NCBI RefSeq assembly: GCF_030028105.1
Contig: NC_092377.1
Coordinates: 157,830,104 to 157,894,103, forward strand
Length of the DNA stretch: 64,000 bases
DNA from: Mobula birostris
Lineage: Eukaryota
Direction of reading: 5' to 3'
In this document: positions 1,994 to 64,000 of the stretch, piece after piece
How the letters are laid out: each line of letters opens with the position of its first letter
Position numbering within the stretch: position 1 is the first letter of the stretch
Notes under the pieces: model-generated
The model's input: only the letters and a program-made list of their open reading frames with translations
The model's database searches: none
What the model was told of the DNA's origin: nothing
Translations under genes and position numbers: made by a program

Positions 1994-2084
1994 CGGGTTA
2001 TGAAGTACCAGCTCTTTCAGTGCCTGAACGTCTTCATTAAATGTGGCCGACATCAAGAATGCCTGATAAATCTTCGGAAGGTGT
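1994..2084 (-). CDS. DDX56: DDX56 exon 5 (motif III SAT)
   Basis: 91 nt; ttgcAG|ACACCTT ... CCG|GTAAGA; HLPKIYQAFLMSATFNEDVQALKELVLHNP. Phases are consistent with exons 4 and 6. Confidence 0.96.
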
Positions 2085-3730: not shown

Positions 3731-4077
3731 CAATGAGCACAAAAATTCGGACTTCTGTCCCCAAGAGGGTGGAACTGATGAAGGCATGGCCTTAGGGAGA
3801 AGTTAAGAGAGGCAGTGTTCAGTCAGTCAGTCATAAAGAATTTGATGACACAGTCCTGAAGTGCACCAGTAGATGGAGCCAGACATCTTCGCAATCATTT
3901 ATTCCATACTCATTATTAAAATGAAAGCTTACTTGGTCATTATCACATTACTGTTTGAGAGTTGTTTACAAACACCATTGCTCTATTCCCAACACAGGTG
4001 ACAACACTCAAAACAAAATGCACAACAGTTGTAAAGTACTTTGAGACATCCTGCAAAGCAGATTAAAGGCATTATAT

Positions 4078-4858
4078 TCAAGATTCAAGTTCACTTATCA
4101 AGTTTAATTGTCATTCAACCATACATGAAAACCGATGAAAGCAGCCAAATGAAACAGTGCTCCTCTAGGGCCAAAGTGCAAAACGCAGTACCAACATTCA
4201 CACACAGGAAAAACCACATATAGCGCATATGATAGCAAGCACATATGAGATACCAATAAAATACAGTCACACAAAAAAATCGTCCAAGACCTGAGTCCAT
4301 GGATGTTGCTGAAATCTAAAATTGAACACAAATAAACTTGTTTTCTGCTGAGCGAACACTAGGGGACAGCATCTGACTCCAGCTTGGATGCTGTGCCACA
4401 CCACCTCCAGTGGAGGTGAGACTCTGATGCCTCTCCCCTGGGCGGCTGTAAACAGTCAACACCACAGCCTGACGCCTAGTCCTCACTACAACCGAGGCCA
4501 TGCAGCAGCCAATAAACCAGTGAAGTAGACTTGCTGAATTCCACATTAATAATGACCAACAGGGTCTTGTGATCACAAGAAAAGCGACAGACGATCATTA
4601 CTGTCAGACTGCACAGCTCCTTCGCGCATTGACTCCTCAGACGCTTCTCTGCCGCAGGCAGCAGCACAATCCGCACCAAGCCCAGCTCCTTCCATCTCTT
4701 GGCTAACAAGCAACTCGCTGATGGGCTGCTGTACTTTTAAATTCTTAATATCCAGCAGGGTCTTGTAATCGTAAAAAATCAAGCTTAAAAAGGACAGTAA
4801 CACCTTTGGTCAAGCCCGTAGAAGCTGCTGCGATTGAGCGCACCACCATCTTATCGGA
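4078..4858 (-). mobile_element. Internally deleted (bipartite) Rex1-like element
   Basis: 5' end AAGATGGTG plus YDYKTLLDI-like leader, joined to a 3' tail similar to that at 5215-5300. Confidence 0.6.
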
Positions 4859-5214
4859 AGATCTTACCTTATCGTACATCAAAGCAACCGTGAAATGCGT
4901 CATTTGCATTACAACTCCAACACAGCTGAGGGTGTGCTGCACATGTCACCACACACTCTGGCATCAACATAGCAATGCCCACAATGCTTGGCAAAACAAC
5001 ACACACCACAACAAAGCCCCGAAACCTTAAAACCAGCCCACTCCTCCCTCCCACCACAGTCCTCTAAACACAAGACAGTCTCTTTTCTTCAGCCTCCAGC
5101 GGACTCTGATTCGGAATCAGAAATGCAGACACTAGGCCTTCAACTGCCCCAGCCGGCTCGCAGAGATTTGCAGATCCAGGTTCCAATCAATGGGCCATGA
5201 TTTCTGGACTTCAA

Positions 5215-6095
5215 GTCAAGTTCAGCTCAAGTTTATTGTCATTCAACCACATACATGTACAGTGCCAAATGACACAAGATTCCCCCGGCCAAGGTGCACA
5301 ACACAATGTAATATTACTACAAATAATAAAATATATTCCAGAAGATTGACAGTTAAGCACAAGATGCACTTAAGACACAAGTTAAAAAGTAAACATTATA
5401 ACGCGGCTGGCTTTTCATAAGTGATGAGAGCTGGGTGGTGGCAAGGAGTTCAGATGTCTCACAGGCTTGGGGAGGAAGCTGTTTCCCATTCTAACAGGCC
5501 TTGTTCTAATGCCACGGTGCCTCCTGTCTGTTTATAGGGGGTCAAAGAGATGGTGGGAAGGATGGAAGGGATCTTTAACAATACTAAGGGCCCTGTATAT
5601 GAAGCGCTGCTGAAAAATATCTGAAGAGCAGAAGAGTTCCCCTCAGCAGTCCTTTGTCGGGTCTTTCAGTCGGAAGTCCTCCATCTCCCGTACCGGACAG
5701 TGATGCGACTGGACAGGACACTCTCAATGGTGCTCCTGTAAAAATTGGTTGGAGTAGTTGGGGGGGGGGGGGGTCGTCCCTTGCCTCATTCTCCACAGGC
5801 AGTGGAGGCACTGCTTGTGCTTTCTTGACCAACAAGGTGCTGTTGATGCACCTGGTGAAAGCATCCATTATGTGCACTCCCAGAAAGCTGGTGCTCCTCT
5901 CTCTGCAGACAAGCCATTTATGCGCAGTGAGGAGTGGTCAGCCTGCATCTTCCTAAAGTCCAGAATCATCCCTGTAGTCTTGTCGTACTCGCACCATTCT
6001 ACAAGTAGCTCTACCACCACTCTGTACACTGTCTTATTATTGTTGTTGATGAGGCCAACCACCGTTGTGTCGTCAGCGAACCTGATGATTTGACC
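5215..6095 (-). mobile_element. Rex1/Babar 3' fragment (DDX56 intron 4)
   Basis: [14 protein letters not shown]; 3' tail with AATGACAATAAA. Confidence 0.8.
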
Positions 6096-7092
6096 CGATA
6101 TGTAAGAGACAGTTGTCATTTATAACTTGTTGGGGACTGCTCTGAAATTATTACGTTAATTGTTTTATCTGTACCAGGCCTTTAACCAGAAGTTCTTGCG
6201 TTACCTTGCCATGTTCTTTCCACGTATAGAGCCAGTCATACAGCACAACTGGTCTGGGCTGGTCAAGCACCCACTTACACTAATCCTATATAAATCCCAT
6301 CCTAAATCGACTGAATGTCATAAATTTGCAACTGAATGTTCCAGGTGGAGACCGTCTGTGGGAGAATCTTTCCACCACCAGACTCCAGATCGCCTACCCA
6401 CAATGTTCAGCAGAGCAACACATACAGCAGTAAGAATAGAATTAAATAAGACACTAACAGTAAAATAAGTCCACCCCCCACTCTCTCACTCTTACAGACA
6501 GTCCTCCCACCCCAGGTCAGGCTGCCTCCAGGTCCCCAGTCTTTGGCCCTGGACTCTCAAGACTCACAGTCTCGACCTTTGGGTCTCTATCTCCATTCAT
6601 GTTGACTTTCTGGCTTTTAACCTCCAGCCTTGCTGAACTCTGGACTCCAGACTTGGTCGAACTCCGGGTCTCAACCCCAGTACTCGGTCTGGTTTGGATT
6701 TTGACCTTCGGGCCTTGACTGACGTGACCTCCAGGGTGGCTGACTTTGGGAGCACTTTGGGCCTTGACTTGCAGATTCACATGCAGGATGAATGGTGGCA
6801 CGTGCAGGCTGCCCCCAACACCTCCTCGGGTGTGTTTGTTGTTAATGCAAACGATGTGCTTCGATGTACATGTGGGAAGTAAACCTTAATCCAGGGCAGC
6901 TTCTATTCTCATAAGACAAACTCTTGTTCTTGCAAACTACCTCGCCAGGGCCCCTTGCAGTTTGTTTATTTATTTACTTGAAATTTATTTCTTTACCTGC
7001 ACCTTCTCCGTAGCTACAACTACGATATATTCTGTATTCCCTTTTCATCTTTATTACTTCAATAATCTTATGGATGGCATGATCTTACCGAC

Positions 7093-7560
7093 GTGTGGCG
7101 GGGTGGAGATGTGTCTCCACCAAAGGAGGTGTAAGGCGCTCCTTCCCTCTACTAGCCTGCCGGTCACCCTTGGGCAAGGTGTAGCACCTGCTTGGCTCCC
7201 TCCCCACCCATCAGTGTCAGGTGAAGTCATGGAAGCAGGCGGTGGATGGTCGTATGAGCAGCTGGTGCATATCACAAGTCCTGGTTATGTGACCACTGAC
7301 GCCAGGCAGAAGATCACTGAAGAGTAAGGCGCGAGTCCTAATGATGGGTCTCAGGGCGAAACATCAACTGCTTACTCTTTTCCACAGATGTTGCCTGGCC
7401 TGCTGAGCTCTTCCAACATTTTGTGTGTGTTGCTTCAATCTCTAAAGGGTGTTGAAAATGACTGGGGTCACGCATCTCTGTAAAGGCACTGCACAGAAGG
7501 CGGCAATGACACTTCCACAGAAAAATTTGCCAAGAACAATCATGGTCATGGATGGACGAT
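7093..7560 (+). mobile_element. RTE-related non-autonomous element (copies at 11890-12235(-) and 50140-50355)
   Basis: Three similar copies in the window; GAAGGCGGCAATG(GCAAACC)ACTT motif typical of RTE/BovB-type ends; this copy is interrupted by a Penelope pLTR piece at about 7325-7435. Confidence 0.65.
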
Positions 7561-8023
7561 GATCACCTACACCACACTTCCACAACCTGGATCAACACGT
7601 TGACATCGTGTACAGGCTTGCGTGCTTCAAGGATTTCATCAGGCGATAGCAACTCAGGGCCACCCATGTTGGAACAGCTGTGGACGAGATGCCAGACCAA
7701 GATTGATCCAACCCTGGCTCCCAAAAGGACAGACTCCAGGCCACACTTCATCATTTGTCAAAAAACCAGCTGGAAGTGTGAAAAGAAAACCACCTGCCAT
7801 ACTAAACAACAACAATCTACATCATACGGCACGGCACATAATGAAGGTGATGATCTTACTCAATGGCACATTCATACACGTTCATTTTAAGTCAATAGGT
7901 GTAACAATAATTGAAAGAAGGTAATCTGTAAGGGCAAACTGAAAGATAAATCTATTTTCAGATAAATATACCAACATAAATAGAAATCCCGTCAAGAAAA
8001 AAAACTCAAAATTAGTTTCTTAC

Positions 8024-8194
8024 CCCAGAAGGTTCTTCAGGTCATTTTCAAACCCAAATGAGAAGAGTAGATCTGCCTCATCGATCACAAGCATTTCCAG
8101 GGAGGTACAAAGACTCAGCGTGTGCTGTTCCACGTGCAGCAGAACGCGGGAGGGGGTGCCAATGACTATATCAGGCTTCTCCATTAATATGGGC
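8024..8194 (-). CDS. DDX56: DDX56 exon 4 (DEAD box)
   Basis: 171 nt after a 90-nt intron; PILMEKPDIVIGTPSR...VIDEADLLFSFGFENDLKNLL; donor GG|GTAAGA. Confidence 0.96.
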
Positions 8195-8284
8195 CTGAAA
8201 GAGAGAACCAGTATTGAAAAGGGCCACGCGACAAGGTACAAACAGGAGGAAGTCCTCACAGACAAACACTCATTTTTCTTCTAC

Positions 8285-8439
8285 CTCTGTGCTGATATAT
8301 CCGCCTGCCCCGAGACGTCAGCCACTCGAACGTCCCACGTGCAATAGGCTGTAAGTTGTCGGATCATTTGCTGCACTTGCTGACCCAGCTCCTTCGTGGG
8401 AACCAACACAAGGGCTCGCACCGCCTGCTCGCAAGTGGA
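8285..8439 (-). CDS. DDX56: DDX56 exon 3 (motif Ia PTKEL)
   Basis: 155 nt; ctcAG|TCC ... CAGAG|GTAG. STCEQAVRALVLVPTKELGQQVQQMIRQLTAYCTWDVRVADVSGQADISAQ. Confidence 0.95.
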
Positions 8440-10220
8440 CTGAGGAGAGACACAGGGTTTAAGAAAGTCCAGCTCTGTCACAAACATCACTGATACTTCA
8501 GTCAAATACAAATCGGTTCCTGTCTGACATGTTGACCCATGACCTCCACATGCCAAAATGAGACCTATTTCAGGGCAGAGGAGTAACATCTTATCTTTTA
8601 TATTCAATACCTCATAATCTATTTTCATTCCTGACGGTATGAATATAGAGTCCTCTTTCCAGTAAACAAACTACACCCCATCAGTTCCCCACTCTGACCT
8701 TTTAACACTTCTCACCTGCTATTACTTCCCCCATGTCCCCTCCTCCTTTCCTTTCTCTGATGGTCCACTCTCCTCTCAGATTCCTTCATCTCCAGCCCTT
8801 GACCTTTCCCACCCACTTGGCTTTACCTATCAACTTCCAGCTAGCCTCCAGTCCCTCCCCCCATCTTTTAATTCTGGCATTTACCCCCCACCTTCCTTCT
8901 CACTCCTGAAGAAGGGAATCAGCTTGAAATGTCAACTGTTTACTTATTTCCACAGATGCTGCCAGCCCTGCTGAGTTCCTCCAGCATTTTGTGTGTGTGT
9001 TGCTTTGGATTTGCAGCATCTGCTGACTTCGTGTTTATATCCTGTCCATCCACACTGTTATTAATCAGCTTCCCCATGGCAGCAAGTGGATTCAGCAGCA
9101 CCTCACCAGCAAGAATATTACACAGAGTGAGGAATTTATACATTGTGATCATGCACAAAATTCAGAATAACCTTAGTGTTTATTTCTGACACGTACAACA
9201 AAATATACAGTGAAATGCATCATTTGTATCCAATCAAATCAGCAAAAATTGTGCTGGGCAGCCCACAGGTGTCACAGACTTCTGGCATCAACGTGGCGTG
9301 CGCACAACTCACCACCCTAACCGTCCACCTTTAGAACATGGGAGGAAACTGGAGAAGTCGGAGGTAATGCACGCGATCACGTGGAGAACATGCAGACTCC
9401 TTACAGGCAGCGATGGGAATCGAACTCTGATCTCATGGCTGGCTGATGTAAAGCACTGCGTTAACTGCTACGCTACAAAGCCGCCAGCCAAACTTGACAC
9501 TGAGGAGGACTCATGCTACTCCACTCCCCACACAGTTGCTGAGCTAACGCCCAGCAATCTCCAGAGTGGGAGAATGCAAATCATAAAACAGCCAAGTGCA
9601 GTTGCACTTCCTTTTCTATCCAAAGACAACTCATTGCCTGTGTACTTGTCTGGAATTTGACCCAATGCTTCAAAGGAGCACGCCTAGGAAACACACATTA
9701 AATTGGTCACACTGGGCTGTATTAGGGTGAGTGGGAAAAGAGCTCCCCTTCCTTTTGCTCTAGTGACCTAAGCCAACGTGTGGCTCCGTGGCATCTCTCT
9801 GCCACTCTGGCTTACAGAACTCTCCGTCTCTTTCGTCTTGCCTTCCACTCGCAAGAGAGAGCTGCTATGGCCGGCGTGCCCGTCCCAGCTCTCTCGGGTC
9901 CTGTTGTCACGGCTGCGCCATCCCCCGTTGAGCCGCGTCTGCTGAGTCGGGCTTGCACCCCCGCCGCTCCGTTGAGGTTGTCGCTTGTGTTGCTCTGACG
10001 GCCTTGCCGTGTTGGCGCCAGAATATATGGTGACACTCGTGGGCTGATCCCAGCACACCCTTGGGTGTGCTGGTTTTTAAAGGAAACAGCACACTTCTCA
10101 GTATGTTTCGTTGTACGTGCAGTTGGTAAATCAGAATCTGAACAGAGACAAATTCGGACCCTTCAACTTGAAAGACAGAGACTATTTAAGAGCAAATGGG
10201 ACAAACGTGGGAGAGATTAC

Positions 10221-10382
10221 CTTTTTAGTGTTGAGAAGATGTTCGATGATGGGAATGGCATAGGCTGCAGTTTTACCAGACCCAGTGCGTGCCCTGGCCA
10301 GTAGATCTTTCCCCTCCAGTGCCAGAGGAATGGCCTTTTCCTGAATTAGAGTAGGCTGCGCCCAGTTCAGTTTGGCAATGGC
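10221..10382 (-). CDS. DDX56: DDX56 exon 2 (Q motif, Walker A)
   Basis: 162 nt, AG/GT bounded. Translates [54 protein letters not shown]. Confidence 0.96.
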
Positions 10383-21055: not shown

Positions 21056-21430
<375 letters not shown>

Positions 21431-45924: not shown

Positions 45925-47300
45925 GATTGGGAACTGCTGACGTACAAAGGGTGTCCATGTACGTCAGCCTATGAAAGTAAGCATGTGGTTAAGGTGGCAT
46001 ATGGTTTATTAACTTTTGTTGCACAGGTTTTGAAAACAAAAGTTAAGATGAATTTTACCCATGTATGTGAAGGATGTAAGAAATAATGTCAAGTCAAGTC
46101 AAGTCAAGTCAAGTCAATTACCCAGGGCATCGGTGATGCCAACCTGGAGCACCTGGTGTAGTTTTAGTTTCCTTACTCAAGGGACATACTTGTCATAGGA
46201 GTGCAACAAAGTATCACCAGACTGGTTCACAGGATGGCAGTATTGTCTGAAAGAGGATGTGTTAACCACTCCACTACTAATAGATTTCAGAAAAAAATGA
46301 CAGCAGATCTCATCGAAACTTACAGAATTCTGACAGGGCTCAACAGACCTAATACACAAGGGATCTTTCCTGTAAGAAGGGTGTGTGCCGGAACCAAAGT
46401 TAGAATCTCAGGACAGGGTCAAGGCATTTGGGAGTGAGAAGAGGACAAATTTCTTCAATGTGAAACTCCCCAACACTGGAGACTGGGGAAGCCAAGACAA
46501 TAGAGATACTTAAGGTGCAGGTATACAGATTTCTAGATATTAAAACTTCAAAAAGTTATGGGAAAAGAGCAGTAAGACTTTAAGACATATGAGCTGATTT
46601 AGGCCATTCAGCCCATTGAGCCTGCTCTGCCATTCCATCTGATTTATTATCCTTCTCAACCTATTTTCTTGCCTTCTCCTCATAACCTTTGACGCCTTCA
46701 CTAATCAAGAATCTAACAACCTCCGATTTTAATATAGCCAAAGATTTGGCCATCACAGCCGTCTGTGGCAAAAAAAATCCACAAATTCACTGCATTTGGG
46801 CTAAAGATGTTTCTCCTCATCTTTGTTCTAAAAGGACCACCTCCTATTGAGGTTGTGTCCTCTGGTCGTAGACTCCCTCACTATTGGAAACATCCAATCC
46901 ACATCCAGTTTATTTTGACCTTTCAATATTGTGTGTTTCAATGAGATTTATGCCACCCCCCCCCCATCATCTCATTGATCTAAACTCCAGCAAGTACATG
47001 CCCACGACCATCAAACGGTCCTCATACATTAACTCTTTCATTCTCAGGATCATACTCGTAAAGTTATGGAGCCTCTCCAATGCCAGTGCATCCTTTTTTA
47101 GATATGGAGCCTCTCCAATGCCAGTGCATCCTTTTTTAGATATGGAGCCCAGAACTGCACACAGTACACCAAATGTGGCCTGACCAATGCCTGGGAGAGC
47201 CTCAGCACATTCTTGCTTTTATATTTCAGTCCTCTTGAAATGAATGGCAACGTTGCATTTGCCTTCCTTTCTACCGACTCAACCTGCCAAATTAACCTTT
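45925..47300. mobile_element. CR1 fragments (+ 45925-46575; - 46580-47300)
   Basis: DLIETYRILTGL; CR1 tails; a 38-bp tandem duplication at 47065-47148. Confidence 0.75.
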
Positions 47301-47858
47301 AGGGAAGTGGGTCCCAATATGGCAAGGGGTCCATGGCATAAAAAATGTTGGGAACCCTTGCTTTAGGGAATCAGCAAGAATGTGGTATTGATCATGTTGA
47401 ATGGTGGAACAGTCTCAAAAGGCCAGAGTGGCCTATTCCTTTTACTACTCTTTGTGCCAACTTCTGATAAAAGTGTTGCCTGAAAGTTAAAAAGATTTAA
47501 AAAACGCTACTGTGTACCACATTTCCTGGTCTTTCATACCTGACTAGTAGTCTACTTAACTCATGCCCATTAACAGCATGTTCAAGTCTTCAGTCATCCA
47601 GCGATACCTCTAACCACTAACACAGATGTCCCCAACAGTTGACATTACAGCAGCATGGTTACAAACCATCTAACCAAGTATATTAGATTTGCAAACTAAG
47701 TAATATTTTATTGCTTATGCAATTAGCAGCAGTCTTCCAGATACCATCTTGTAGTACCTTTATGAAGTCATTGTTTGCTATTCCTAGTTGTGAATCCCTC
47801 GTGGCTTCAGTTCAGAGAACTGGCAGTTAGTGTAACTCAGTCAGTGTCTGAAGGATGC

Positions 47859-48703
47859 TCAAGGACGCCTGCCTCGAAGTGCTCGACCTCGAGGGGATCT
47901 GACTGCCACCTGCAGATTCAATGGTGCTTCTGGAGGAGATGGGGCTTCGGAAGATGGGGAGGGATCATACGTGCTGTTACCCCGAGAGAGGCTAGCAAAA
48001 GACACTCCAGCTGGCCCACTCACATGGGGCTGTGACTCCATGCCGCCATTGAGCTGTGGCAGAGCAGACTGCAGAAGGTCTGAGATGTGACCGAACCCCC
48101 TATCAATACGCCCGCCCAACCTTTCCAAACTAGTGGAAATGGTGCAAGCCAGAGCCTGAATAGCACTTGTTTGAGCCTCAATCAGTGACGCCAAAGTAGG
48201 TGCCACAGGCTCATGGACAGAGGGCTTCATTGCTGCATCGACAGAGTTGGCAACTCGCTCCATGGTAGACTGGAGGGTGGTGATACCTTGTGCCACAACC
48301 CCACAAAAGATGGATGCAGACTCTTCTACACTCTCAGACAGCGTGAGGCAGCTCTTTGGCAGTTTGTCCAAAGCTTGGAGCAACTGATGATGCTCGTGGA
48401 AAATCTTTCTTCTAAAGGCTGGGCCTGTGAGATCTGCATCTTTGTCCTCGTCGATACAGCTAGGACCAGAGGTTGCCCTGGAGTCATCGGTCTCCTGGAT
48501 GGTCCTTTCCACTATGTCCAGCTCCTGTTCATTACTACTGAATAATTCATTATGTGAAGATCCATTTAGCTGACCGTCCATTCCACTGGAGATGTTTAGG
48601 TCAGTGCTGATGTAGTGGAAAGATGGGGCTGGTGACTGTGCATCTTCTGTGAAATGCTCCTCTTCCATCTCCTGTCCAATAAAGCCTAGGTAATGAGTCA
48701 GAT
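47859..48703 (-). CDS. Myb/SANT gene exon 3 (acidic region, helical region, basic tail)
   Basis: Acceptor tctccctctttttcAG, phase 1; 845 nt open to TGA. Spliced CDS 1236 nt = 411 aa. AATAAA on minus strand at 47712-47707. Confidence 0.85.
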
Positions 48704-48833
48704 CTGAAAAAGAGGGAGACAAGATTGGTGAGTCCTGGGATGGTGAACTAAGAACAGTACATGAACATCTCTAGGGTGATTACTCGGTCTGTGTGACGAC
48801 TGAAAAGAGCAGGTAAGAGAAATAGGAATGCAC

Positions 48834-48993
48834 CCTGTGGTACTTGGCCTCCGGCCTTGCCATTCTCAATGTTTCTCCTGCTGTTTGGCCCAATGATGTC
48901 CAGGGCTTCCTGCTCCATCTGGGTGAGATCTAGAATAGATGCTGGGCGTTCCCCGCAACTGGTTCTTTTCCTTGTTTTGTGGGCCAACTTCTC
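48834..48993 (-). CDS. Myb/SANT gene exon 2
   Basis: tacAG|GAGAAG; 160 nt EKLAHKTRKRTSCGERPASILDLTQMEQEALDIIGPNSRRNIENGKAGGQVPQ; donor CAGG|GTGCAT (phase 1). Confidence 0.82.
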
Positions 48994-49409
48994 CTGTAGA
49001 AATAGTGAGAGTGAGTTAGTGCTTCATTGTTATAATGCATGACGGAGACGTGCGAACCAGCTGCATGCAGGAGGCGGGGATGTAGCCAGTTAACAGCCAT
49101 GTTTATTGGTTTTGTGTAGAAAATGAAGGGCTTCAATTTATTTATTATCCTTAGCATTATTTCTTAAGTAGAGTCACTGCTGTAATGCAGGAAATGTGGC
49201 CAACCTGCATAAAACATAATGCCTCCACGAAAATATATGACAGTGACTATATTACTTTTCTTCTACGGGATATTGACCATACAGGAGATGTGAAAAGTTT
49301 TCCAGGTTTTAATCACTGCTCACGTCTAATTCTGAGGGCTTTCATCCAGGCTTACCTGTGTAAGCGGATACCTTGCTTACAGTTTATAAATTTGAGTTCA
49401 ACCAAACAA

Positions 49410-51800
49410 CCTTGATCCCTACACCTCCTTCCTCACCACAACTCAAGGTTCCAAACAGTCCTTCCAGGTGAGGCAACACTTCACCTGCGTATCTGTCAGG
49501 TCATCTCTCTGCAGTACTTCTCGGCTTTTCTGCTCACGGCCCACTTGAGACTATCATTTACCTCTGTGGCCGCCACCCTCCAATGTCTCCATTAGTTGCG
49601 AAGGTTTTTTTTGTCAACTGTACTATTTATTGTAATATACAGACAATATTTATGTCTTAACAGGTTATCAGTATTACTACATGTTAAATATAGTGTTGCA
49701 GGTGTGTATGAAAAATAAAACTATTTCAAAGTTCTAAATACAATAGTTCACTTATAATATATAATAAAACTATAACCAGCAATTAATATTGTTACTTTGG
49801 GTACTTAGTGAGATCCTTGCCACAGATGCAAACTAGTGAGTTTTTGAATATCTGGTTGGAACTTGGTTAGAGATAACCAAAGATCACGTCTTTTCACAAC
49901 ATCAAGATGGTTACAAGCTTTTGAAAGCAGTTGAAGAGCTTGACTAAAACCACATTCAACTAGATAAGAGGTGGGAAATCCAATTAAAAACTTGGCTTTC
50001 TCGCAAAGCTGTGGAAACAGTAGATATTCAAAAATGTTGCTTGCTGTGTTTGAATTTTGCTTGAGCATTTTATCACTCTGCAGCTCAATAAGACATTCTT
50101 GCAACGTGATGACAACATCATTCACATTATATATACCGGTATATATAGCCGGAGAGGAGATATATCTCTACCAAAGGAGGTACAAGCACTCCTTCCCTCC
50201 ATAAGCCTGCAGGTCACCCATGGGCAAGGTGTAGCACCTGCTTAGCCCCCCTGATCAGGGCCACGTGAAGCCATGGGAGCAGATGGTGGATGGTCATATG
50301 AGCAGCTGGTGCAGATCACAAGTCCTGATTATGCAACCACTAATGCATAACAGTAACAATCATGACACCAAACTAGGTAGAGAGACCTACTTTAGAGTGA
50401 GTAGGATCTATAGAAAATCAGTAAAAGTCAAAGAATTATTATAAGTATAATCCCACGTGAAAAAGTACCAGTATTGAATAAACATGTAAAAATAAAATCA
50501 GCTTTTTAGGTAATACTTTTTAAAAATCATTTATTTATTGGGCATTTTTTAAAATGCTATTATATATTCAAGTCCTATATAGCAATAAGGAGCATGCACT
50601 AACCAAGAAGAGTGATTTGAACTTCCTTTCAAAATAATACGTAACAGGGATTTAATAGAAGTTGTAGTGGTATAGTGATGCAGTGGTAGAATGTGTGAAG
50701 TCTCACCTCTCTGCAGTTCAGCTATTTCTGGCCGAGGACCCCACTGCAGCCTTCATGTCATGTTTTGTAAGTAATATAACATGCACAGGTCGGTGGAAGG
50801 CAAACGGAACCAGCCTCTTGTTATATACTTGCTCAGTGGGGCAAAGAGCAGATCTGCAGTTGTGGATGTGCAACAGGACTCAGCGGGCCGCCCTGCAGGG
50901 TGTGAACAGTGATTTGTGCGTGGTCAAGCAGGAGAGAGCGAATGATATGCCGCACCCCCGCCCCCAACACACAGCTAAGCTATTTTGCTGCCTCATTTGC
51001 AGCATCTAGCACATCTTATTTCATCCAATTAAATTACATATACTCATTTCTTTTTTATGTATATATTTTAGTAATCTTTCAATAAAACAGTAAACTTATC
51101 ATGGCCTATTCAGAAACTTCTGTGGCTCCCAGTTTCTTTGTAGCCATGACAAAATCTGGCATGGCCCCCTGGGGGACCCTATGGCTTACACTGAGCATCA
51201 CTGGTCTACAGTATCTAGTGTTGCCTCCTCTGCATTGGTGAGATCTGATGCTTCTCAAAAGGAAGGATCTCCAGGTGGCCACCCATTTCAATATGTCTGT
51301 CCATGACCTCCTCGACTCCCACGATCAGTCCATACTCAGGTTGGTGGAGCATCACCTCATGTTCCATGTGGATAGCCTCCAACCTGATGGCATGAAGATT
51401 GATTTCTCTAACTTTCAGTAATTCCCCCCCCCCACCTCTCCTTGTCTGTTCCCTATTCTGGCTCTCCTCTTTTCTTCACATGCCCTCTGCTGCCCTTTCT
51501 CCTTCTCTTTCTCCCATGATCCACCCTTCTCTCCTATCAGATTCATTCTTCAGCCCTTTACCTCTTCTCCCTATCATCTTCTTGCTCCTTACTTCAGCCC
51601 CCCCCCCCCAGCTGATCTCACCTAGCACCTACCAGCTTGTACTCCTTCCCCTCCCCACACCTTCTTATTCTGGCCTCCGTCTCTTTCCTTTCCAATCCTG
51701 ATAAAGGGTCTCAGCCAAAATGGTGACTGTTTGTTCCTCGTCATAGATGCTGCTTGATTTATTGAGTTCCTCCAACATTTTCTAAGTGTTGCTCTAGATT
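49410..51800 (+). mobile_element. Penelope-like element 3' part, split by the hAT insertion
   Basis: GIY-YIG C-terminus PYTS.LTT.QG.KQSFQVRQHFTC (49415-49510) resumes at 51204 (..VATHFN..EHHL.F...SLQPDGM.IDFSNFQ*), then a pyrimidine-rich UTR and pLTR. Confidence 0.78.
49512..51203 (-). mobile_element. hAT (Buster/Charlie) deletion derivative
   Basis: FPTSYLVECGFS..RRDLWLSLTKFQPDIQKL...QGSH*; CAGT termini; right flank GTCTACAG fits the nnnTAnnn target pattern. Confidence 0.82.
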
Positions 51801-52034
51801 GTCATCATTTGCAGAATCTCATGTTTAGATTTGTATCTTTCCCAGACAAATCTGTTTCCCATTCCACAAAAGCTCCCTGACTTGCCAAGTGTTTCCAGCA
51901 TTTTCCATATTTCCTTACAACACTGAAACAATTTGGCCCATTACCCTCTGTTGGCTGCCAGTGCAGTCCCATCAACCCCATTCCCCCACATTTCCTTGTA
52001 ACTCTCTCACGCGCCCACCAGTTCTCCCCAATAG

Positions 52035-52680
52035 TCATAGTCATACTTTATTGATCCTGGGGGAAATTGGTTTTCGTTACAGTTGCATCATAAATAATAA
52101 ATAGTAATAGAACCATAAATAGTTAAATAGTAGTATGTAAATTACACCAGTAAATTATGAAATAAGTCCAGGACCAGCCTATTGGCTCAGGGTGTCTGCC
52201 CCTCCAAGGGAGGAGTTGTAAAGTTTGATGGCCACAGGCAGGAATGACTTCCTGTGACGCTCTGTGCTGCATCTTCAGTCTCTGGCTGAATGTACTCCTG
52301 TGCCCACCCAGTACATTATGTAGTGGATGGGAGACATTGACCAAGATGGCATGCAACTTGGACAGCATCCTCTTTTCAGACCCCACCGTCAGAGAGTCCA
52401 GTTCCATCCCCACAACATCACTGGCCTTACGAATGAGTTTGTTGATTCTGTTGGTGTCTGCTACCCTCAGCCTGCTGGCCCAGCACACAACAGCAAACAT
52501 GATAGCACTGGCCACCACAGACTCATAGAACATCCTCAGCATCATCCAGCAGATGTTAAAGGACCTCACTCTCCTCAGGAAATAGAGACGGCTCTGTCTC
52601 TTCTTGTAGACAGCCTCAGTGTTCTTTGACCAGTCCAGTTTGTTGTCAATTCACATCCCCAGGTATTTGTAATCTTCCAG
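52035..52680 (-). mobile_element. Rex1/Babar-like LINE 3' fragment
   Basis: ORF 52123-52569 MFYESVVASAIMFAVVCW..NKLIRKA..HPLH; (TATGAC)n tail. Confidence 0.8.
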
Positions 52681-52743
52681 CTTACATTATTCCTAATGTA
52701 TGGGATAATAACTAATTATCCCATACATTAGGAATAATGTAAG
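52681..52743. repeat. Perfect 29-bp inverted repeat with 5-nt loop
   Basis: CTTACATTATTCCTAATGTATGGGATAAT-aacta-ATTATCCCATACATTAGGAATAATGTAAG. Confidence 0.95.
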
Positions 52744-53532
52744 ATAGCCAATTAATAATCCACTGGCCATCTGGAAGCACACAGGAAGAACATGGAAGCT
52801 GCATACAGACACTGGAGATTAGGACTGAACCCATTTTGTAACAGATATCAGTCATGAGATTTACCTGTATAGCTGTGCCACCCCATCCACACCAACTTCT
52901 AAAAGGGCAGGGCAGTACAGTAGCATAGCAGTTGGCACATCACCTTGTAGTGCTAGGGACCACTGATTCAATCCTGTTGCTGTCTGTAAGGCGTTTGTAC
53001 ATGCTCCCTGTGACCGTGTGCATTTCTTCTGGGTGATCCAGTTTCCTCCCATATTCCAAACATGTACAGTTGATAATAGGGTTAATGAGTTTTGGGAATA
53101 CTATGTTGGCACTGGAAGCATGGGGACACTTGTGGGCTGCCCCCAGCTTAATCCTTGGACGATGTTGATTGTTGATGCAAAATGATGCCTTTCACTGTGT
53201 TTTGATATACATGTGACAAATAAAGCTCACCTTATCTTACCCTTAAACCATGCCGCATAAAATCTAGTTACACATTATGCACAGTGATTCATAGTGATTG
53301 CTGGGTTAGCAAAATCCCAGTTTAAAAATTCTCATCTTTATTTTCATATGCTGCATGGCTTCACCCCACTCCCCAAGTTACAATCTCTAAACTATCTGCA
53401 CTCATCTAATACTGTCCTCTTAAACAGTCACGCAGATGGGAAAGACGTCATTCAGTCCTACTTGTCTATGCTCGCCAAGATTCTCACTACTTGACAATTA
53501 TTGAATTTAATCACTCCACCTATTTCACCACA

Positions 53533-53885
53533 AGACCATAAGACATAGGAGCAGAATGTAGCTATTTGGTCCAGTTATTCTGCTCCACTATTTCATCATA
53601 GCTGATCCATTTTCCTTCTCAGCCCCAATCTTCAACCTTCTCCCCATATCTCTTCACGCCCTGACTAATCAAGAATTCATCAACCTCTGCCTGAAATATA
53701 CCCAAAGACTAGGCCTCCATAGCCACCTGTGGCAATGAATTTTGCAGATTCACCCACCACTGTCTGGCTAAAGAAATTCTTCCTCATCTCCACTCTAAAA
53801 GGACAGCCCTCTATTCTGAGGCAGTGTCCTCTGGTTCTAGACACTCCCACCATAGGAAACATCCTCTCCACATCCACTCTATCAC
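53533..53885 (-). mobile_element. CR1 3' fragment
   Basis: VDVERMFPMVGVSRTRGH.LRIEG.PFR.EMRKNFFSQ. Confidence 0.82.
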
Positions 53886-54357
53886 ATTCACATACCAAAG
53901 TCAAAATACCATGACTTATGCTTTCAAACATGTCTAGCTTTTTTACTTCTCTCTTAAGAAGCTCTTTAAACCCTATCTATCAGTAAATTGATTTAATTGC
54001 CCTTATTGTTCACAGAAACATTTCATTTGATATCCTTCCTGGGATGTTTTACTCCAGCAAAGATGCTGAAAGATTTGAAAAGTCAAAACTTTTTCTTTAC
54101 AGAAGGAAAGCTTGACAGAAATGTATAACATGATGAGGGGTTTGCACAGAGTGGATAGCAAGCAGCTGGTCCTACTGGAGAGTACGAAGGATTAAAGGCC
54201 ACAGGTGAAATATTAAGGGAAAGTGAATTAAGAGTGACACAAAGAAAACTGTTAAAAAAAAAAATCAGCATGTGGCTGTAATCTGAAATGTACTGCCTGC
54301 AGATGTAGTGGAAGAAGATTCCATTCTGGCCTTCAAGAAGGAAGGAATTAAATAAAT

Positions 54358-55327
54358 ATACTCAGTGCCAACTTTATTGGGTGCACCTGCTCATTAATGC
54401 AAATATCTAATCAACTAATCACATGGCAGCAACTCAATGCAAAAAAGCATGCAGACATGGTCAAGAGGTTGAGTTATCTTTATAGTATCTTGGAAGGAAG
54501 TGGGATGGTCAAGGAATGCAGGAGGGAGGAGGTGAGATTGAGGTTTGGGCACACAGGGTTAAATAATACATTATTTTTAACAAAGAAATACAGTAACAAA
54601 TATTGTAATCAACAAGATACAGTTGAGTATATTCTGGCGAGGTGCCCAAGATACAGTCAAGAGAGGATGGTTGATTTTAAAGTTATCACAGAATAAAACA
54701 CAACTTAACATTAACAATACTTTGCAGAAAGGATCGCAGGATTATTGCTTTAAATATACAGCGCAGTTCCTTAAGAATACAGGTCTTTTATAGAATTTGA
54801 CAGATACACAAATATATAACGTTTAGATATCCTGACCCATATTCCAGTTCAGAAGGTGGCAGAAATGCACCATAAAGCTGTTTGTCAACCGCCATAAAAC
54901 CTCAGGAGGAGAGGTTCATTTGCTGTTCAGACCAAACATCAGAATGGGGAGTAAATCTGATCCAAGTGACTTTGACCGTGGAATGAGTGTTGGTGCCAGA
55001 TGAGGAGGTTTGAGTATCTCAAACCGCTGACACCCCCTGGGATTTTCATGCACGACAGTCTCTAGAGTTTACAGAGAATGGTGCAATAAACATAAAAAAA
55101 ATCCAGTGAGCGGCAGTTCTGTGGGTGAAAGCGTCTTGTCAATCAGAGGTCAAAGGGGAATAGCCAAATTGGTTCAAAGTGACTATGACTCAAATAACCA
55201 CGACAGTGGTGTGCAGAAGAGCATCTCTGAATGCACAACATGTCGAACCTTGAAGTGGATGGTTACAGCACCAAAAGTCCACACCAGGTTGCACCCCTGT
55301 ATCTAATGAAGTGGCCACTGGGTGTAT
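54358..55327 (+). mobile_element. Tc1-like element interrupted by a Nimb-like 3' end (about 54475-54910)
   Basis: TA-CACTCAGTG..CTTTATT TIR and ...GTGGCCACTGGGTG-TA; N-terminal transposase remnants (SDFDRGM.VGAR; SGVQKSISE). Confidence 0.8.
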
Positions 55328-56866
55328 ATAGCAATGAAAGCTTTGCAAGGCTAGAGAATGGAAAGGAATTGGTTAGACTGGAACTAGTGGAATGGTTTGG
55401 TAGAAAACCAGTGCAGAGATATTTGCCTGAATCACCTCCTAGGGCGCTGTAACTTTGATTCCATACAAATGCAGATTACTCTTCAACACATTTAATGTGG
55501 TACTTCACAGCAGACTTACAAGGAAAGCAAAGCCAATGCAAAAATGATGGCGTAGACACAGAAATTAGTCAGAGGATCAAAAAAGCAGATCTGAGGAGAT
55601 TTGGTATGTCAACAGACACTTGAAAATTTCTACAGAAAGGGTTAAAGGTGATATATTAAAACTGATTCTGAAAACCATAACGGTGGCTTTTCAGATTGTA
55701 AGGAAGGGCCCTTCCTCCAGATGAGTGACATCGGAGACTACCGATGACAATGATAAACAACCAACTGGAGGAACTCCGCTTGATCAAGCAGTAGGTATCA
55801 GAGAAAGGAACTGTTGGCCTTCCTGTTTGAAACCCTGCATCCAAACTAGCCCTGCTTCAGCCTGAAATGTTGGCAATTCCTGCTCCTGATGCAGGCTTTT
55901 GACCTGAAGCTTCAACAATTCCTTTTCTCCGACATATGCTGCTCAATCCGCTGAGTTCCTCCAACAGATTGCTTGTCGTGCCTGCAGGGGTCATTTCCAC
56001 CCCCTAAGACATGACCTGCAGGAAGAAGCAAGTTTAGCAGGCCAAGGGCAGGCTAAAATACTGGAGTATGCCCGAACACTTCTGTTGGGGGGGGGGGCAG
56101 GAAGCATATGGACCACAGCCATTTCTGACATGGACACATGCCTTTGTCATGATACAGGGGAAATCAGTTTTGTCATACCCTCTTCTTATGGTGAGGAGGT
56201 ACAGGAGTCTGAAGACCATCAATGATTCAAGAACAGCTTCTTTCCCTCTGCTATCAGACTTCTTAAGACCACAAGACACAAGAACAGAATTAGGTTATTC
56301 AGTCCATTGAGTCTTCTCCACCATGTCCGAGTTGTTATCATCTCAACTCCATTCTCCTGCCTTCTTTCTGCAACCTTTGACACCAAGAACCTCCACTTTA
56401 AATATACTCAATGACATGGCCTCCACAGCCATCCAGGGGAATGAATTCCACAGATTCACTAGCCTCTGGCTAAAGAAATCCCTTCTCATATCTCATCCAA
56501 AGGGTTGTCCTTGTATTTTGAGCTGTGCCATGAACAGTAACTAATTATTCTTTTTTTTTTGCTCTGTTTCGTTACTAACATCAGGCAGGAGGTACAGAAG
56601 CCTGACAGACAATGATTCAGGAACAGCTCCTTCTCCTCTATGAACCCTATGAACCCAAGAACACACCTCATTATTTCTTTCTGTAGAACTATTTTGCAAT
56701 GTATAGTGATGTTATGACTTTGAACTGCATTGCAGCCGCAGAACAGACTTCACATCATGAGACAGACAGTGATAATGAACCTGATTCTGAAACCTGCCAA
56801 CACAAGGACTGGTGACTGGTTGGAGCAGAGTGGCTGGGGGCGAACTCCTGCGGCCACCATGCTTAC

Positions 56867-57097
56867 CTTCGCAGTCCAGGTCAGGCCATTGAACTTCTTG
56901 CGGCACTGCAGCCAAGTCTTTGGCACCTCACTCTTGGCATTAACACAGTGTGCCACCTCCATCCAGGCCTGGTGCACCTTCTCCCTGGGCACACTCCTGC
57001 CCTCGGAGGGGAAAAATATCTCCCTGCGAGCCCTCACCTGCTCCAGCAGAACCTGCACTGCTCTATCGCTGAAGCGCGGGGTCCGAGGCTCCGACAT
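56867..57097 (-). CDS. Harbinger-type Myb/SANT DNA-binding protein, exon 1
   Basis: 231 nt, MSEPRTPRFSDRAVQVLLEQVRARREIFF...AWMEVAHCVNA...KTWLQCRKKFNGLTWTAK; donor AAG|GTAAGC. Motif pattern of the NAIF1/MSANTD/Harbinger Myb family. Confidence 0.88.
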
Positions 57098-57420
57098 GCC
57101 GGCGAGAAACAAAACCCGAACCCGGGGCAGGCTGAAGGGGGAAAGGTGTTGGGGGAATATGAGGCGGCTGGAAATTCGTCGTCGGGGGGTCGGCCGGAAA
57201 CACCCACCCTCCGGCCAGCCCGTCCCTCATCGGACATTCACACACATATATGGCCCCGCCGGCCAATGGAGACCCAGAACTTCCTGTCCATCATAGGGAG
57301 CGCAGCTAATCGGAGAAGCGGACTGACGAGGACCCGCCCACGCCGGCCCGATGTGCGCCCGCACTAAAATTGGCATCGCAAGATGGCGGCGGTGAGGGTC
57401 CCTGGCTGAGGGATGCAGGC
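57060..57420. promoter_or_regulatory. CpG-rich, probably bidirectional promoter with a perfect YY1 motif
   Basis: Dense CpG against a CpG-poor background; CAAGATGGCGGC at 57379-57390; CCGGAA motif near 57194. Confidence 0.7.
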
Positions 57421-59206
57421 TGGTATTGAGCGAATTAAAGGCTTTCAGAAGCAGCATCACGTTTAACATCACCTGCACATATCGTGAAATTGGTTGTTTC
57501 TGCAGCAGCAGTACAATGCGATACATAATAGCTGGAAAAACTGAATTACAGTAAATGCATCCATCTATAGGAATAGAAATTTAAAAAACGTTGTTAGGTA
57601 GTGTTCATTGGTTGTAATATCCATTCAAAAATCGGATGGCAGAGGGGAAGAAGCTGTTCCTGAATTGTTGAGTGTGTGCCTTCACGAACAGGACATGTCC
57701 TGGATGATGGGAGGTATTAATGATGGATGCTGACTTTTTGAGAGATCGCTCATTGAAGATGACCGTCTCTCAGGTTAAAAATTGTGCATTTTCCGCTGAT
57801 GGGGTAGCCGCTTGCGAAGGAAACTGAGGGACGAAAGTATCGAGGGAAAGAGGAGTTGTAAAGTGGAGGAAATAAGAGGATAGGGAGAAGGGGAGTGAAG
57901 GGGTTAGAGGGGACGGGGACAGTAGAAGGTGGAGAACGGGTAGGTAGGAGAGGAGACTGGAGTAGAACCTTGTAGAAAGATTAGGGGTGGAGAGAAAAGA
58001 AGAAAAGGGGAATTGAATAGAATAACAGGGGAAAGAAAGGTAATGTTAGTGATATAAGACATTATACCGCGTGCTGAATAAATATTGAAACACTTGTAGG
58101 AAAGCAGCATACATCATCAGAGATCTACGCCACCAAGGCCATCCTCTTTTCTCGCTGCTACCATCAGGTAGAAGGTACAAGAGCCCCAGGACTCGCACCA
58201 CCTGGTCCAAGAACAGTTACTACCCCTCAATCATTACACTCTTGAACAAAGGCGTTAACTCTACGCATTTGCCCAACTATTGAGATATTCCCACAACCAA
58301 TGATCTTACTTTAAGCACTCTTTATCTTGTTATTTCATGTTCTCACTATTTATTTATATTTGCATTAGCAGTTTGCTGTCTTCTGCACTATAGATGATCT
58401 TTTTCATTGATCCTGTCATAGTTACTATTCTATCAATTTGCTGAGTATGCCCACAGGAAAATTTATCCCAAGGTTGTATGTAGTGATGTAGTGATCTCTA
58501 AGCACATAATTTGCATTTTTTGTCATCTTTTAATATGAATACTTATTTCAATGCAAGTAACTGACTATAATAGAAAAAAGTCCCCTTAAAAATAACTCAG
58601 TGGCATCTAGAAGGACAGACTATCCCTGGGTTTAACGTTGCCTCTTGAAGCCGATAACTTGAAACACTTGCTCAGCAGGACACTACAGTGCCAACTAATA
58701 TTCTTGTTTTTCGGTGTTTGGGAGTGGAATGTAGCATCACTGCCTTTTTAACCATACACACTATAATTTGTGGCTGTTTATTGTTAGATACATGACCCCT
58801 TTCAGAGTTTTCATTGATCAAATGCTCCAGTTCTTCAGCTGAATGTGCACTTCATGCCTGTGTAAATATAAAAGCTAATCATCTTCAGCTCTTTTTCCAT
58901 GGCATGGCTCATTGGATCAGAGTTTGGGTGATATCGATGTGTTTATAATGCCCTGGTCCAAATATCCAAATACAAGCCCCCTACTACATACAGGTACAGA
59001 GCTATTTTGATGCCCTTGGTCTTTTGAACAGGAAATATTAGCTTTATTTGCCACATGTACATCAAAACATCAATACAGTGAATTGTGTCATTTGCGTGAA
59101 CAACCAACACAGTCCAAGGATGTGCTTGGGGCAGCTCGCAACTCTCACCATGCTTCCAGCGCCAACATTGCAACTTTCTAACCGGTACATCTTTGGACTG
59201 TGGGAG

Positions 59207-59615
59207 TGTGGTAAACCATATATACGTATGTTGTAGCTGGGTAACTGGACACGCCCCTCTGCTGACTGCCCTTGTGGCTCCTCCCACAGAGCCCTGAGTA
59301 AAGGTGATTTTGCCCTGCTCCTTCCCCTCAGACCAGGGGCAGACACTCAGCATGGAGGTCACATTTTACTGCGAATAAAATTGAAGCACCTTCAATAATT
59401 CCAAAAGACTGAAGTAGGGTAAATATTGAAAGGCTTTTATTCGCAGTAAAACGTGACCTCCATGCTGAGTGTCAGCCCTGGGTCTGAGGGGGAGGAGCAG
59501 GGTGAAATCGCCTTTATTCAGGGATCTGTGGGAGGAGCCACAGGGGCAGTCAGCAGAGGGGCGTGTCCAGACAGTCAACCCAGTTACAACATATATATAT
59601 ATATGGTTTACGACA
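59207..59615. mobile_element. Foldback LTR-like element inserted in a V-SINE
   Basis: TGT...ACA termini, inverted arms of about 180 bp, GGGAG on both flanks. Confidence 0.75.
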
Positions 59616-62480: not shown

Positions 62481-62989
62481 TTTTTTATTTGTTACTGGTA
62501 TTCATATTGGTGTATTGGTACTAAAGAAATGAAGACTTGGTTGCCTTTCAAAACACCTACCTGGTGTCATGCTTCCGACTGAACAGCAGCAGGCATCTAA
62601 ATTTTGGCACTCCATTTCCCCAGAGTATGGTTAGCTGACGCTGTCCCTTTAAGATGCAGACTGCCAATTATTGCCTAACAGATCCCTTATATGGAAAGTC
62701 TGTACTTAAGGGCTTCGTGCTAGGCACTTAGTACTTGGAGGGTGGAGGANNNNNNNNNNNNNNNNNNNNNNNNNNNNNNNNNNNNNNNNNNNNNNNNNNN
62801 NNNNNNNNNNNNNNNNNNNNNNNNNNNNNNNNNNNNNNNNNNNNNNNNNNNNNNNNNNNNNNNNNNNNNNNNNNNNNNNNNNNNNNNNNNNNNNTTTGCT
62901 TGATGTGTGAATGTGGTTTGGAACCTGTTGAGGGAAAGAGAGTGGGGAAGGAATGGAAATTGCTGGGAGGGGGTCGTGTGGGTCCGGTA

Positions 62990-64000
62990 ATGGTGGACAA
63001 GATAAGAGGTGGGGTTGAGGGAAAGAAAGTGGAGAAGGAGAGGGATAGAGACTTGGGACCAGAGGTAGGCAGCTGGGGAGAGGTGGATTATTGTGAAGGG
63101 AGAAATAAAGGGAATGAGGAGGTAATGAGGGGTTGGATGAATAAAAACCAAGACAAAGGGAATAAAAGAATAAGAAATGATAGTGGAGAAAGCTCTGAAA
63201 GTGAGGAAGATGAACAAGCTCAGAGAGGAGGTGTTGTCATAATTAGGTTTAATGAGAAAGCTCAGGGACATATGAAGAAAATTAACCTGTTTGTGCTAAC
63301 AACAACTCTGACAAATAAGGCAGGGGAAAAAGTATTTGCAAAAGTCCTTAATGATGGCAACTTATTGGTAAGATGTGTGAATGAGGAACAACTTGAGAAA
63401 GCACTCAAGCTAAAAGAGATAGGAAAATGCAAGGTGGAATACACTGGGAGGGTGGGAGCACAAAACAGTGGTTGTAAAGGAGTGATCATGGGGATACCAA
63501 TGAGTATAAATATGGAGGAGATAAAGAGGAATATCAAAGGAGGGAAAGTAATGAATGTTCAAAGACTGAAAACAACAAAGGAGGGAGTGAAAAAGGAAAG
63601 TGAATCAGTATTGATTGAATTTGAAGAAGAAAGAGTGCCAAGGAAGGTGTTCCTGGGTTTCATGAGTTACCCAGTAAGGGTGTATGTGCCAAAGCCACTG
63701 AGGTGCTATAATTGTCAAAGGTTTGGACACGTGGCTAAAAACTGTAAAAGGCAGAGGAGATGTGCTAGATGTGGGGGTGATCATGAATATGGAAAGTGCG
63801 GAACAGGAGTTCAACCAAAATGCTGCAATTGTGGAGGAGCTCATAATGTTGCATATAGTGGGTGTGAGGTTGTCAGACGGGAGACTAAAATTCAAGAAAT
63901 AAGAGTGAAAAGAAAGATCACTTATGCAGAAGCTGTAAGAATGTCAAGAGAACATAATAATGCTCCTAATGAACAGGGAGCAATAGGGATACGAGAGATG
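62990..64000 (+). mobile_element. Nimb/I-clade LINE ORF1 (gag-like), open to the window end
   Basis: 337 codons with no stop from ATG 62990; YVPKPLRCYNCQRFGHVAKNC, CARCGGDHEYGKC and CCNCGGAHNVAYSGC zinc knuckles. Absent from the ORF track because it has no stop in the window. Confidence 0.88.

Follow-up and report, generated by a model that had tools for sequence, protein, structure and literature searches.

The question raised by the locus described here is whether an intact Myb/SANT open reading frame (ORF) in the genome of Mobula birostris still belongs to a transposon or has become a gene of its host. The ORF, hereafter gene A, lies on the minus strand of a 64,000-nucleotide (nt) stretch of contig NC_092377.1 (positions 157,830,104 to 157,894,103); this whole stretch is referred to as the window, and positions are counted from its first letter. 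Harbinger elements carry a Myb-like ORF that has been domesticated repeatedly in vertebrates, as described in PMC9392472, and a first-pass annotation of the window had proposed gene A as a candidate of this kind. Gene A is a fixed, conserved and expressed host gene of sharks, skates and rays. It forms a family with a linked paralogue (B) and an unlinked one (C). Taking all parts together, we consider it probable that this spliced elasmobranch gene descends from a Harbinger Myb/SANT gene, and it is predicted to encode a DNA-binding regulator.

Structure and expression of gene A

The coding sequence of gene A is divided among three exons (57097-56867, 231 nt; 48993-48834, 160 nt; 48703-47859, 845 nt), joined at GT-AG sites into a spliced ORF of 1236 nt and 411 amino acids (aa) whose sole stop codon is the terminal one; the three-exon, in-phase model of the first-pass annotation proved exact to the nucleotide, with no internal stop. 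Exon 1 matches the Pfam family PF13873 (Myb_DNA-bind_5; E 2.4e-12, above the curated cut-off), and the Pfam scan matched no family in exons 2 and 3. The CpG-rich promoter that had been proposed was also found. In a scan of 500-nt bins, 5 of which passed the filter, the island at 57001-57500 covers the promoter and exon 1 with a GC content of 0.60 and an observed/expected (o/e) CpG ratio of 0.86, versus 0.36 for the window and 0.21 for 50000-56000. An AATAAA is present downstream of the stop codon at 47712-47707, as noted earlier, but it cannot be the sole or last poly(A) signal, because a transcript contig with 0 differences continues to 47328. The first-pass annotation missed a second, internal donor in exon 1 (GT at 57037), the use of which yields an isoform of 354 aa.

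Contigs of four public runs (X1, X2, X6 and X8) were mapped on 47300-57700. The RNA status of these runs is a guess, and the evidence for expression is therefore taken from contigs that skip introns at the predicted sites rather than from the RNA label of the runs; X1, X2 and X8 come from three studies. Record 1 of X1 (1735 nt, 0 differences) joins 57235-57037, 48992-48834 and 48703-47328 and represents the short form, record 25 of X8 joins 57048-56866 to exon 2 and contains the long-form junction, record 8 of X2 joins exons 2 and 3, and X6 contributed short exon 3 pieces only. The intron 1 bin at 49035-49381 had a depth of 0 in all 4 runs. Gene A is expressed as a spliced transcript. The junctions expected from the earlier model were thus recovered, that between exons 1 and 2 in its long form in X8 and that between exons 2 and 3 in X1 and X2, but the run closest to the window, X1, shows the short form without the Myb domain; the 411-aa product, which has an intact ORF and a long-form junction, is accordingly one of two isoforms and not the only one.

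The short isoform lacks aa 21-77, i.e., 57 residues of the Myb domain. It is identical over 354 of 354 residues to the M. birostris RefSeq protein XP_072122693.1, and the long form is identical to a M. hypostoma protein at 408 of 411. The Myb-less junction was found in 13 RefSeq proteins, 6 of gene A and 7 of gene B, from 8 shark and ray species; these isoforms are RefSeq predictions, and the contig support obtained here covers that of the window. Because the short isoform is present in both paralogues, these proteins suggest that it is older than the split between A and B. The features of the locus are as follows.

57001..57500, no strand: CpG island over the promoter and exon 1 (GC 0.60, CpG o/e 0.86)
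57098..57235, minus strand: 5' untranslated region (UTR), to the limit of the spliced contig X1 record 1, which does not show the true start
56867..57097, minus strand: coding exon 1 of the long form, aa 1-77, Myb/SANT trihelix domain (Pfam, fold model, junction of X8 record 25)
57038..57097, minus strand: coding exon 1 of the short form, aa 1-20, ending at the internal GT donor; 354-aa isoform without aa 21-77 (X1 record 1, XP_072122693.1)
48994..56866, minus strand: intron 1, 7873 nt, filled with high-copy repeats (ORF model, Pfam, contig depth)
48834..48993, minus strand: coding exon 2, aa 78-130, with the end of helix 3, a basic stretch and a short conserved helix; paralogue-specific (splice contigs, model, site scan)
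48704..48833, minus strand: intron 2, 130 nt, skipped by X1 and X2 contigs
47859..48703, minus strand: coding exon 3, aa 131-411, with an acidic linker, helical module and Pro/Ser-rich tail; A and B likely homogenised within shark species (trees, site scan)
48279..48479, minus strand: exon 3 island, aa 206-272, with all 10 paralogue-diagnostic sites of exon 3 (trees, site scan)
48063..48422, minus strand: C-terminal helical module, aa 225-344, long helices predicted at a predicted local distance difference test (pLDDT) score of 46-66, without a Pfam family (model, Pfam)
47328..47858, minus strand: 3' UTR seen in contigs, including AATAAA at 47712-47707 and continuing past it

Gene A and its paralogues in elasmobranchs

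Database entries for gene A, as an uncharacterised gene, exist for 18 ray, skate and shark species, and those for its sister gene B for 20. In all 16 species with entries for both, the contigs of A and B have the same length, which places the two genes on one contig, down to a 626-kb contig in Mustelus; gene B is absent from the 64-kb window. Paralogue C was found on other contigs in 7 named species. Gene A is single in each of its 18 species, except for a second, identical record on another Heptranchias contig, and was not seen for Pristis or Narcine among the clusters read, which were not all of them. Some RefSeq records of A and B are named MYPOP-like. The single-copy gene anticipated by the first-pass annotation is therefore one of three paralogues. 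In Heterodontus, C is present as two near-identical full copies and a partial one (P0059, P0060 and P0061) on three contigs, for which recent segmental duplication, assembly duplication and renewed mobility are candidate explanations. Among A orthologues, exon 1 is 82-97% identical versus 39-66% for the tail (10 species pairs), a sign of strong constraint on the protein, and exon 1 of B is 88-100% identical across the species pairs compared, one of the B comparisons being without exon 1.

The two linked paralogues are related to each other differently along their length. When A is compared with B inside each of 9 shark species, identity is 60-68% in exon 1, based on the 7 species in which this exon is complete, and rises to 79-99% for aa 131-205 and 88-100% for aa 273-346; inside each of 6 batoids, these last two segments are 53-59% and 69-73% identical, respectively. 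In the tree of exons 1 and 2, A, B and C each form one group (100/99, 100/98 and 96/92), and A broadly follows the species. In the tree of exon 3 without the island (aa 206-272), A pairs with B of the same species, as in Pristiophorus (100/100), Heptranchias (100/99), Heterodontus (100/97) and Mustelus (100/100), and every batoid sequence of either gene falls into one clade (97/97). In the tree of the island, all A sequences are united (98/96) and B is weakly supported (62/0). The trees left out 15 near-duplicate or odd rows, including the catshark protein P0077, and that of exons 1 and 2 also left out 4 rows without a full exon 1. Furthermore, a site scan in 6 sharks placed 43 paralogue and 118 species sites in 6 runs, versus 64 when shuffled (p 5e-5), and all 10 paralogue-type sites of exon 3 were at aa 211-268, although the scan did not presuppose the island. 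An approximately unbiased (AU) test rejected A as a single clade in exon 3 outside the island; it used a quick constrained search with groups that were not blind, and more weight was placed on the trees and the site scan.

These alignments likely reflect recurrent gene conversion of exon 3 in sharks, which ended in the batoid ancestor and from which selection spared the island. Collapse of the two genes during assembly is an unlikely cause of the identity in exon 3, since 9 sharks show it to graded extents (79-99% and 88-100%), the island is exempt from it, and one event is old enough to be common to all batoids. At 28 sites diagnostic for A or B, C of Heptranchias is B-like at 19 and A-like at 7 (p 0.03). 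Because C matches B more often, A would be the derived copy; its own substitutions in helix 3 include G71 and W74, the corresponding residues of B and C being D and R. If conversion is indeed the cause, the A/B pair provides a clean natural case of gene conversion confined to one exon, in which an island resists and the end of the process in rays and skates is dated.

Origin of the family and the surrounding sequence

The 7.9-kb, repeat-filled intron 1 described earlier was borne out. It measures 7873 nt and is rich in repeats, with depths of mapped contigs of up to 80,252 in its bins versus 1-31 in the bins of exons 2 and 3, its sequences are repeated elsewhere in the window, and a Pfam match of the long interspersed nuclear element (LINE) type is found at 52126-52650. 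A near-perfect palindrome with 45-nt arms also lies inside the intron (52665-52759), and about 2 kb upstream of gene A there is a hairpin resembling a miniature inverted-repeat transposable element (59207-59615), with 136-nt arms at 92% complementarity and outer arms with TA-rich ends.

None of the 67 ORFs at 45.1-64 kb, a region that includes only 6.9 kb upstream of the start codon, encodes a transposase domain, and none of the 690 ORFs across the whole window shows a DDE motif. Three of the 25 longest inverted pairs (123 in total) bracket gene A, with a complementarity of only 72-80%, and no convincing terminal inverted repeats (TIRs) with a 3-bp target duplication were found among these 25; the pair 45642-45666/57439-57463 was rejected as a TIR, with 25 nt at 80%. 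This agrees with the first-pass annotation, which found neither an adjacent transposase gene nor TIRs. Many near-identical copies were likewise not found, there being one match in the window, one A protein locus per species, and an exon depth of 1-31 versus 10^3-10^4 for repeats. Within this coverage, the DDE gene, TIRs and numerous dispersed copies of an autonomous Harbinger transposon were not found for gene A. The ORF of a recent or still mobile Harbinger element, intact by chance, could also have the element-type Myb/SANT domain seen here, and the three C-type copies on different Heterodontus contigs would suit it. This explanation is already contradicted by the present data and scarcely credible, since there is one A per genome in 18 species, the tree of exons 1 and 2 broadly follows the species, no transposase or TIRs are nearby, the 7.9-kb intron is filled with repeats, and the contig depth of the exons is low and even. 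Conservation in 18 species, spliced contigs and the absence of a transposase nearby all agree with the proposal that gene A is an immobilised host gene and not an active element.

The evidence for an origin from such an element comes in part from more distant relatives. A profile search of 1.84 billion representatives gave 336 matches, and 142 of the best 150 were new. Among these 142, drawn from the best 150 of 336, the C-terminal module was recovered at 20 bits or more in 15 relatives, and the 6 with names are all elasmobranch; the best of them, P0081 of Heptranchias, a single-species ORF, aligns over its length with A, B and C at 40-41% identity. In a tree of Myb domains, built with a quick method from 70 rows and few columns, the A/B/C clade (99) lies inside a 35-row clade supported at 97 by the Shimodaira-Hasegawa-like approximate likelihood ratio test (SH-aLRT), and the 8 other named members of this clade are all elasmobranch, each from one species at 90% identity. 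The closest relatives of gene A are shark Myb/SANT ORFs at 28-43% identity, rather than rows of presumed MYPOP type at 23-27%, which form a separate clade (SH-aLRT 99). The likeness to shark Harbinger Myb proteins proposed in the first-pass annotation thus stood as far as the sharks are concerned, but not as a demonstration of Harbinger origin, since no relative is tied to a transposase or TIRs. The range that had been called chondrichthyan was confirmed for elasmobranchs (sharks, skates and rays), but no chimaera or bony-fish relative was found among the named matches (10 of the 142 distant relatives); because 132 of the 142 are without names, such a member may exist.

Some relatives are fragmentary and two are fused to host domains, a vigilin KH domain and a SAMD1 winged-helix (WH) domain, as scattered remnants of a mobile element would look. 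A Gly-rich motif after the Myb domain, which we assume to be a hallmark of element proteins, is present in 56 of 122 relatives and in 0 of 11 A/B/C rows. A mixed alignment (A3) contained no conserved stretch usable as a query. In view of the domain type, the architecture and the behaviour of the relatives, Harbinger ancestry of the gene A family appears likely. Other groups were seen among the relatives. P0097, P0122, P0103, P0101, P0127, P0119, P0128 and P0088 form a tight Myb/SANT clade, with named members from Heterodontus and Narcine, and may represent further fixed elasmobranch genes. P0082 and P0090, which are close to P0085 of Pristiophorus, have two or three tandem units of Myb domain plus linker before the C-terminal module.

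Alternatively, A, B and C could be diverged paralogues of an older vertebrate Myb/SANT host gene of the NAIF1, MSANTD or TSNARE1 type that expanded in elasmobranchs, with no new domestication. In an ESM Atlas search, a cluster of NAIF1 appeared at rank 5 with a score of 0.90, the name MYPOP-like is attached to some records of A and B, and the trees presented here were built without authentic NAIF1 or MSANTD sequences. In addition, a conserved shark gene, P0091 (11 members at 90% identity from 10 species), shares a weak C-terminal module (28-33 bits) and is named NAIF1 in one RefSeq record (Carcharodon). P0091 lies outside the 35-row clade, however, and does not contain the N-terminal motif of NAIF1, so that by this motif it is probably not NAIF1; its sequence makes it a candidate for a separate domestication. 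The N-terminal motifs of NAIF1, MSANTD3 and TSNARE1 were found in none of the collected proteins and a motif of the MSANTD4 type in one row, the MYPOP-type rows are at 23-27% in a clade of their own, and the full-length relatives at 40-41% (P0081) are single-species shark ORFs. Descent from an older host gene is, in our judgment, improbable.

Several observations weigh against the reading of gene A as a Harbinger-derived host gene shaped by conversion and differential splicing. Besides the naming of P0091 as NAIF1, a DDE domain was found in 0 of 142 relatives, two metagenome scans gave no confirmed locus, the supposed element ORFs were singletons at 90% identity in 7 of the 8 examined rather than many near-identical copies, and names are available for only 10 of the 142 distant matches. 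Only 5 coding differences were classifiable (X2, exons 2-3; 2 synonymous and 3 non-synonymous), too few for a ratio of non-synonymous to synonymous rates (dN/dS), and the differences in X8, 1 of 183 in exon 1 versus 26 of 867 in exon 3, gave p 0.07. No M. birostris protein of 411 aa is among the 8 of 8 cluster members, the one run that showed its long-form junction is from a different organism, and use of the internal donor may be a by-product (leak) of conserved codons rather than selected. As for conversion, the bounds of the island were set after the alignment was seen, A and B of Mustelus share the first three island sites, and the catshark protein P0077 (Scyliorhinus canicula) combines an A-type end of exon 2 with a B-type island. 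P0077 is a chimaeric gene model with no Myb domain annotated; its sequence is such that conversion may have overwritten A in catsharks.

The remainder of the window contains three other features. Several exons of a DEAD-box RNA helicase gene, which we take to be DDX56-like, lie on the minus strand at about 1979-10330, with motifs near 10283, 8400, 8157, 8082 and 2053; this gene, which has the orientation of the Myb gene and lies about 37 kb downstream of it, is usable as a synteny anchor. A lone histone gene, presumably H2B-like, lies on the plus strand at 21056-21430 in a CpG-rich patch and is interrupted by an assembly gap (21172-21299). At 62912-63997 the plus strand also carries an open frame of 362 aa that encodes a CCHC zinc knuckle and continues beyond the end of the window; it is likely ORF1 of a young LINE.

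Proposed working and comparison with known systems

Gene A carries a Myb/SANT trihelix domain with conserved aromatic residues. Exon 1 was modelled as a trihelix (pLDDT 86), F9 and W45 are nearly invariant in 43 rows, and the closest folds, matched at weak Foldseek E-values, were the Zeste DNA-binding domain (Z 8.6, root-mean-square deviation 2.1, 66 aligned residues), GT-1 (Z 8.3) and an EP400-type SANT chain (Z 8.8). The full-length model was poor (pLDDT 52), with long helices at aa 225-344 between a linker and a tail that are both predicted to be disordered, and its fold matches were generic long helices. No PDB entry matched by sequence with an E-value below 0.19, an Atlas search with the C-terminal module gave nothing above 0.80, and a complex of the modules of A and B, predicted without alignments, scored 0.19 versus a mark of 0.34.

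DNA binding and the binding of a partner protein have been described both for element Myb proteins and for NAIF1 (PMC9392472). In the case of NAIF1, binding to HARBI1 or the transposase has been shown. We favour, with some reserve, the prediction from the models that gene A is a DNA-binding regulator. Its history might be explained as follows: a single element ORF would have become fixed in the ancestor of elasmobranchs, and its duplication would have given rise to C and to the A/B pair; A would then have fixed new residues in its Myb domain, and exon 3 would have been repeatedly transferred between A and B by gene conversion in sharks, a process that would have stopped in the ancestor of rays and skates. 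The trihelix domains of A and B might then bind DNA with different preferences, the helical module common to both might mediate protein contacts, and the Myb-less isoform, retaining the module without DNA binding, might dampen the full-length forms; we offer these three parts of the mechanism tentatively. Still more speculative, and in our opinion doubtful, is a transcription factor module built by elasmobranchs from one transposon ORF, consisting of two linked genes with different DNA-reading heads, an interaction exon that conversion kept matched over most of the history of sharks, a small protected island on which the choice of partner depends and a Myb-less antagonist in both genes. In this reading, several domestications specific to elasmobranchs would have arisen from a single radiation of elements, the module being one of them and the P0091 family another.

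It is also conceivable that the three genes are Harbinger-derived factors for transposon restriction, whose binding targets are the ends or the transposase of Harbinger elements resident in the genome, with a decoy role for the isoform that lacks the Myb domain and with no part in host regulation. Subterminal DNA and the transposase are known targets of element Myb proteins (PMC9392472, PMC9710019), many related ORFs persist in shark genomes, and B and C retain the helix 3 residues typical of the family. However, exon 1 is in near stasis (B 88-100%, A 82-97%), unlike the outcome of an arms race, A has altered a nearly invariant residue of helix 3, and the gene has been retained in rays, from which just one relative outside the family could be named. 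We therefore regard restriction as a quite unlikely function, and prefer that of a regulator of host genes.

Published surveys began from human proteins or used the elephant shark alone (PMC9392472, PMC9179366), and would for this reason miss a family of sharks and rays. Harbinger elements were not detected in the elephant shark, and other cartilaginous fish were suggested for study (PMC9179366); a term search of the supplement of PMC9392472 found no mention of sharks, skates or Callorhinchus. No publication on the A/B/C family was found by topic or by six RefSeq locus identifiers, in a search that did not cover subscription journals, and the three-paralogue family, the conversion limited to one exon and the conserved Myb-less isoform are additions not found in the literature searched.

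Among known genes, MYPOP resembles gene A in PF13873, a length of about 400 aa and a proline-rich tail, but differs in a Myb region that is only 23-27% identical, in its separate clade (SH-aLRT 99) and in having no C-terminal module, as judged from the rows presumed to be MYPOP. MYPOP has been described as a putative Harbinger-derived gene (PMC9392472). Gene A is similar to NAIF1 and MSANTD1-4, as presented in the same source, in that an N-terminal Myb/SANT trihelix is the only recognised domain and the gene is fixed and expressed with no transposase alongside, and it shares its 3 exons with MSANTD1, 3 and 4 (PMC9392472). In contrast, NAIF1 and MSANTD1-4 are described there as single-copy and span jawed vertebrates or sarcopterygians, whereas A, B and C were seen only in elasmobranchs, as three paralogues, and have a C-terminal helical module outside Pfam, a likely exon-restricted gene conversion and a conserved Myb-less isoform.

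The Myb-like ORF of Harbinger (PIF) elements, for example Harbinger3_DR (PMC9710019, PMC9179366), is comparable in its N-terminal PF13873 and in a length of 300-400 aa near that of gene A, which in addition has full-length similarity to lineage-restricted shark ORFs. Unlike such elements, the gene A locus has no transposase gene, TIRs or multi-copy state, and A, B and C lack the Gly-rich motif (0 of 11). The Anopheles genes APM2 and APM2b offer a parallel in which a domesticated second ORF of Harbinger, a PIF MADF gene, was duplicated in tandem and one copy diverged fast; there the transposase was co-domesticated and co-duplicated, and gene conversion and a domain-less isoform were not met in the description consulted (PMC9710019). 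The elasmobranch gene is thus probably a further domestication of a Harbinger Myb gene within an established class, which would add an elasmobranch lineage to those in which such genes were recurrently domesticated. Since full-length likeness to the likely element relatives has been kept, the family is well suited to tracing what taming changes in such an ORF.

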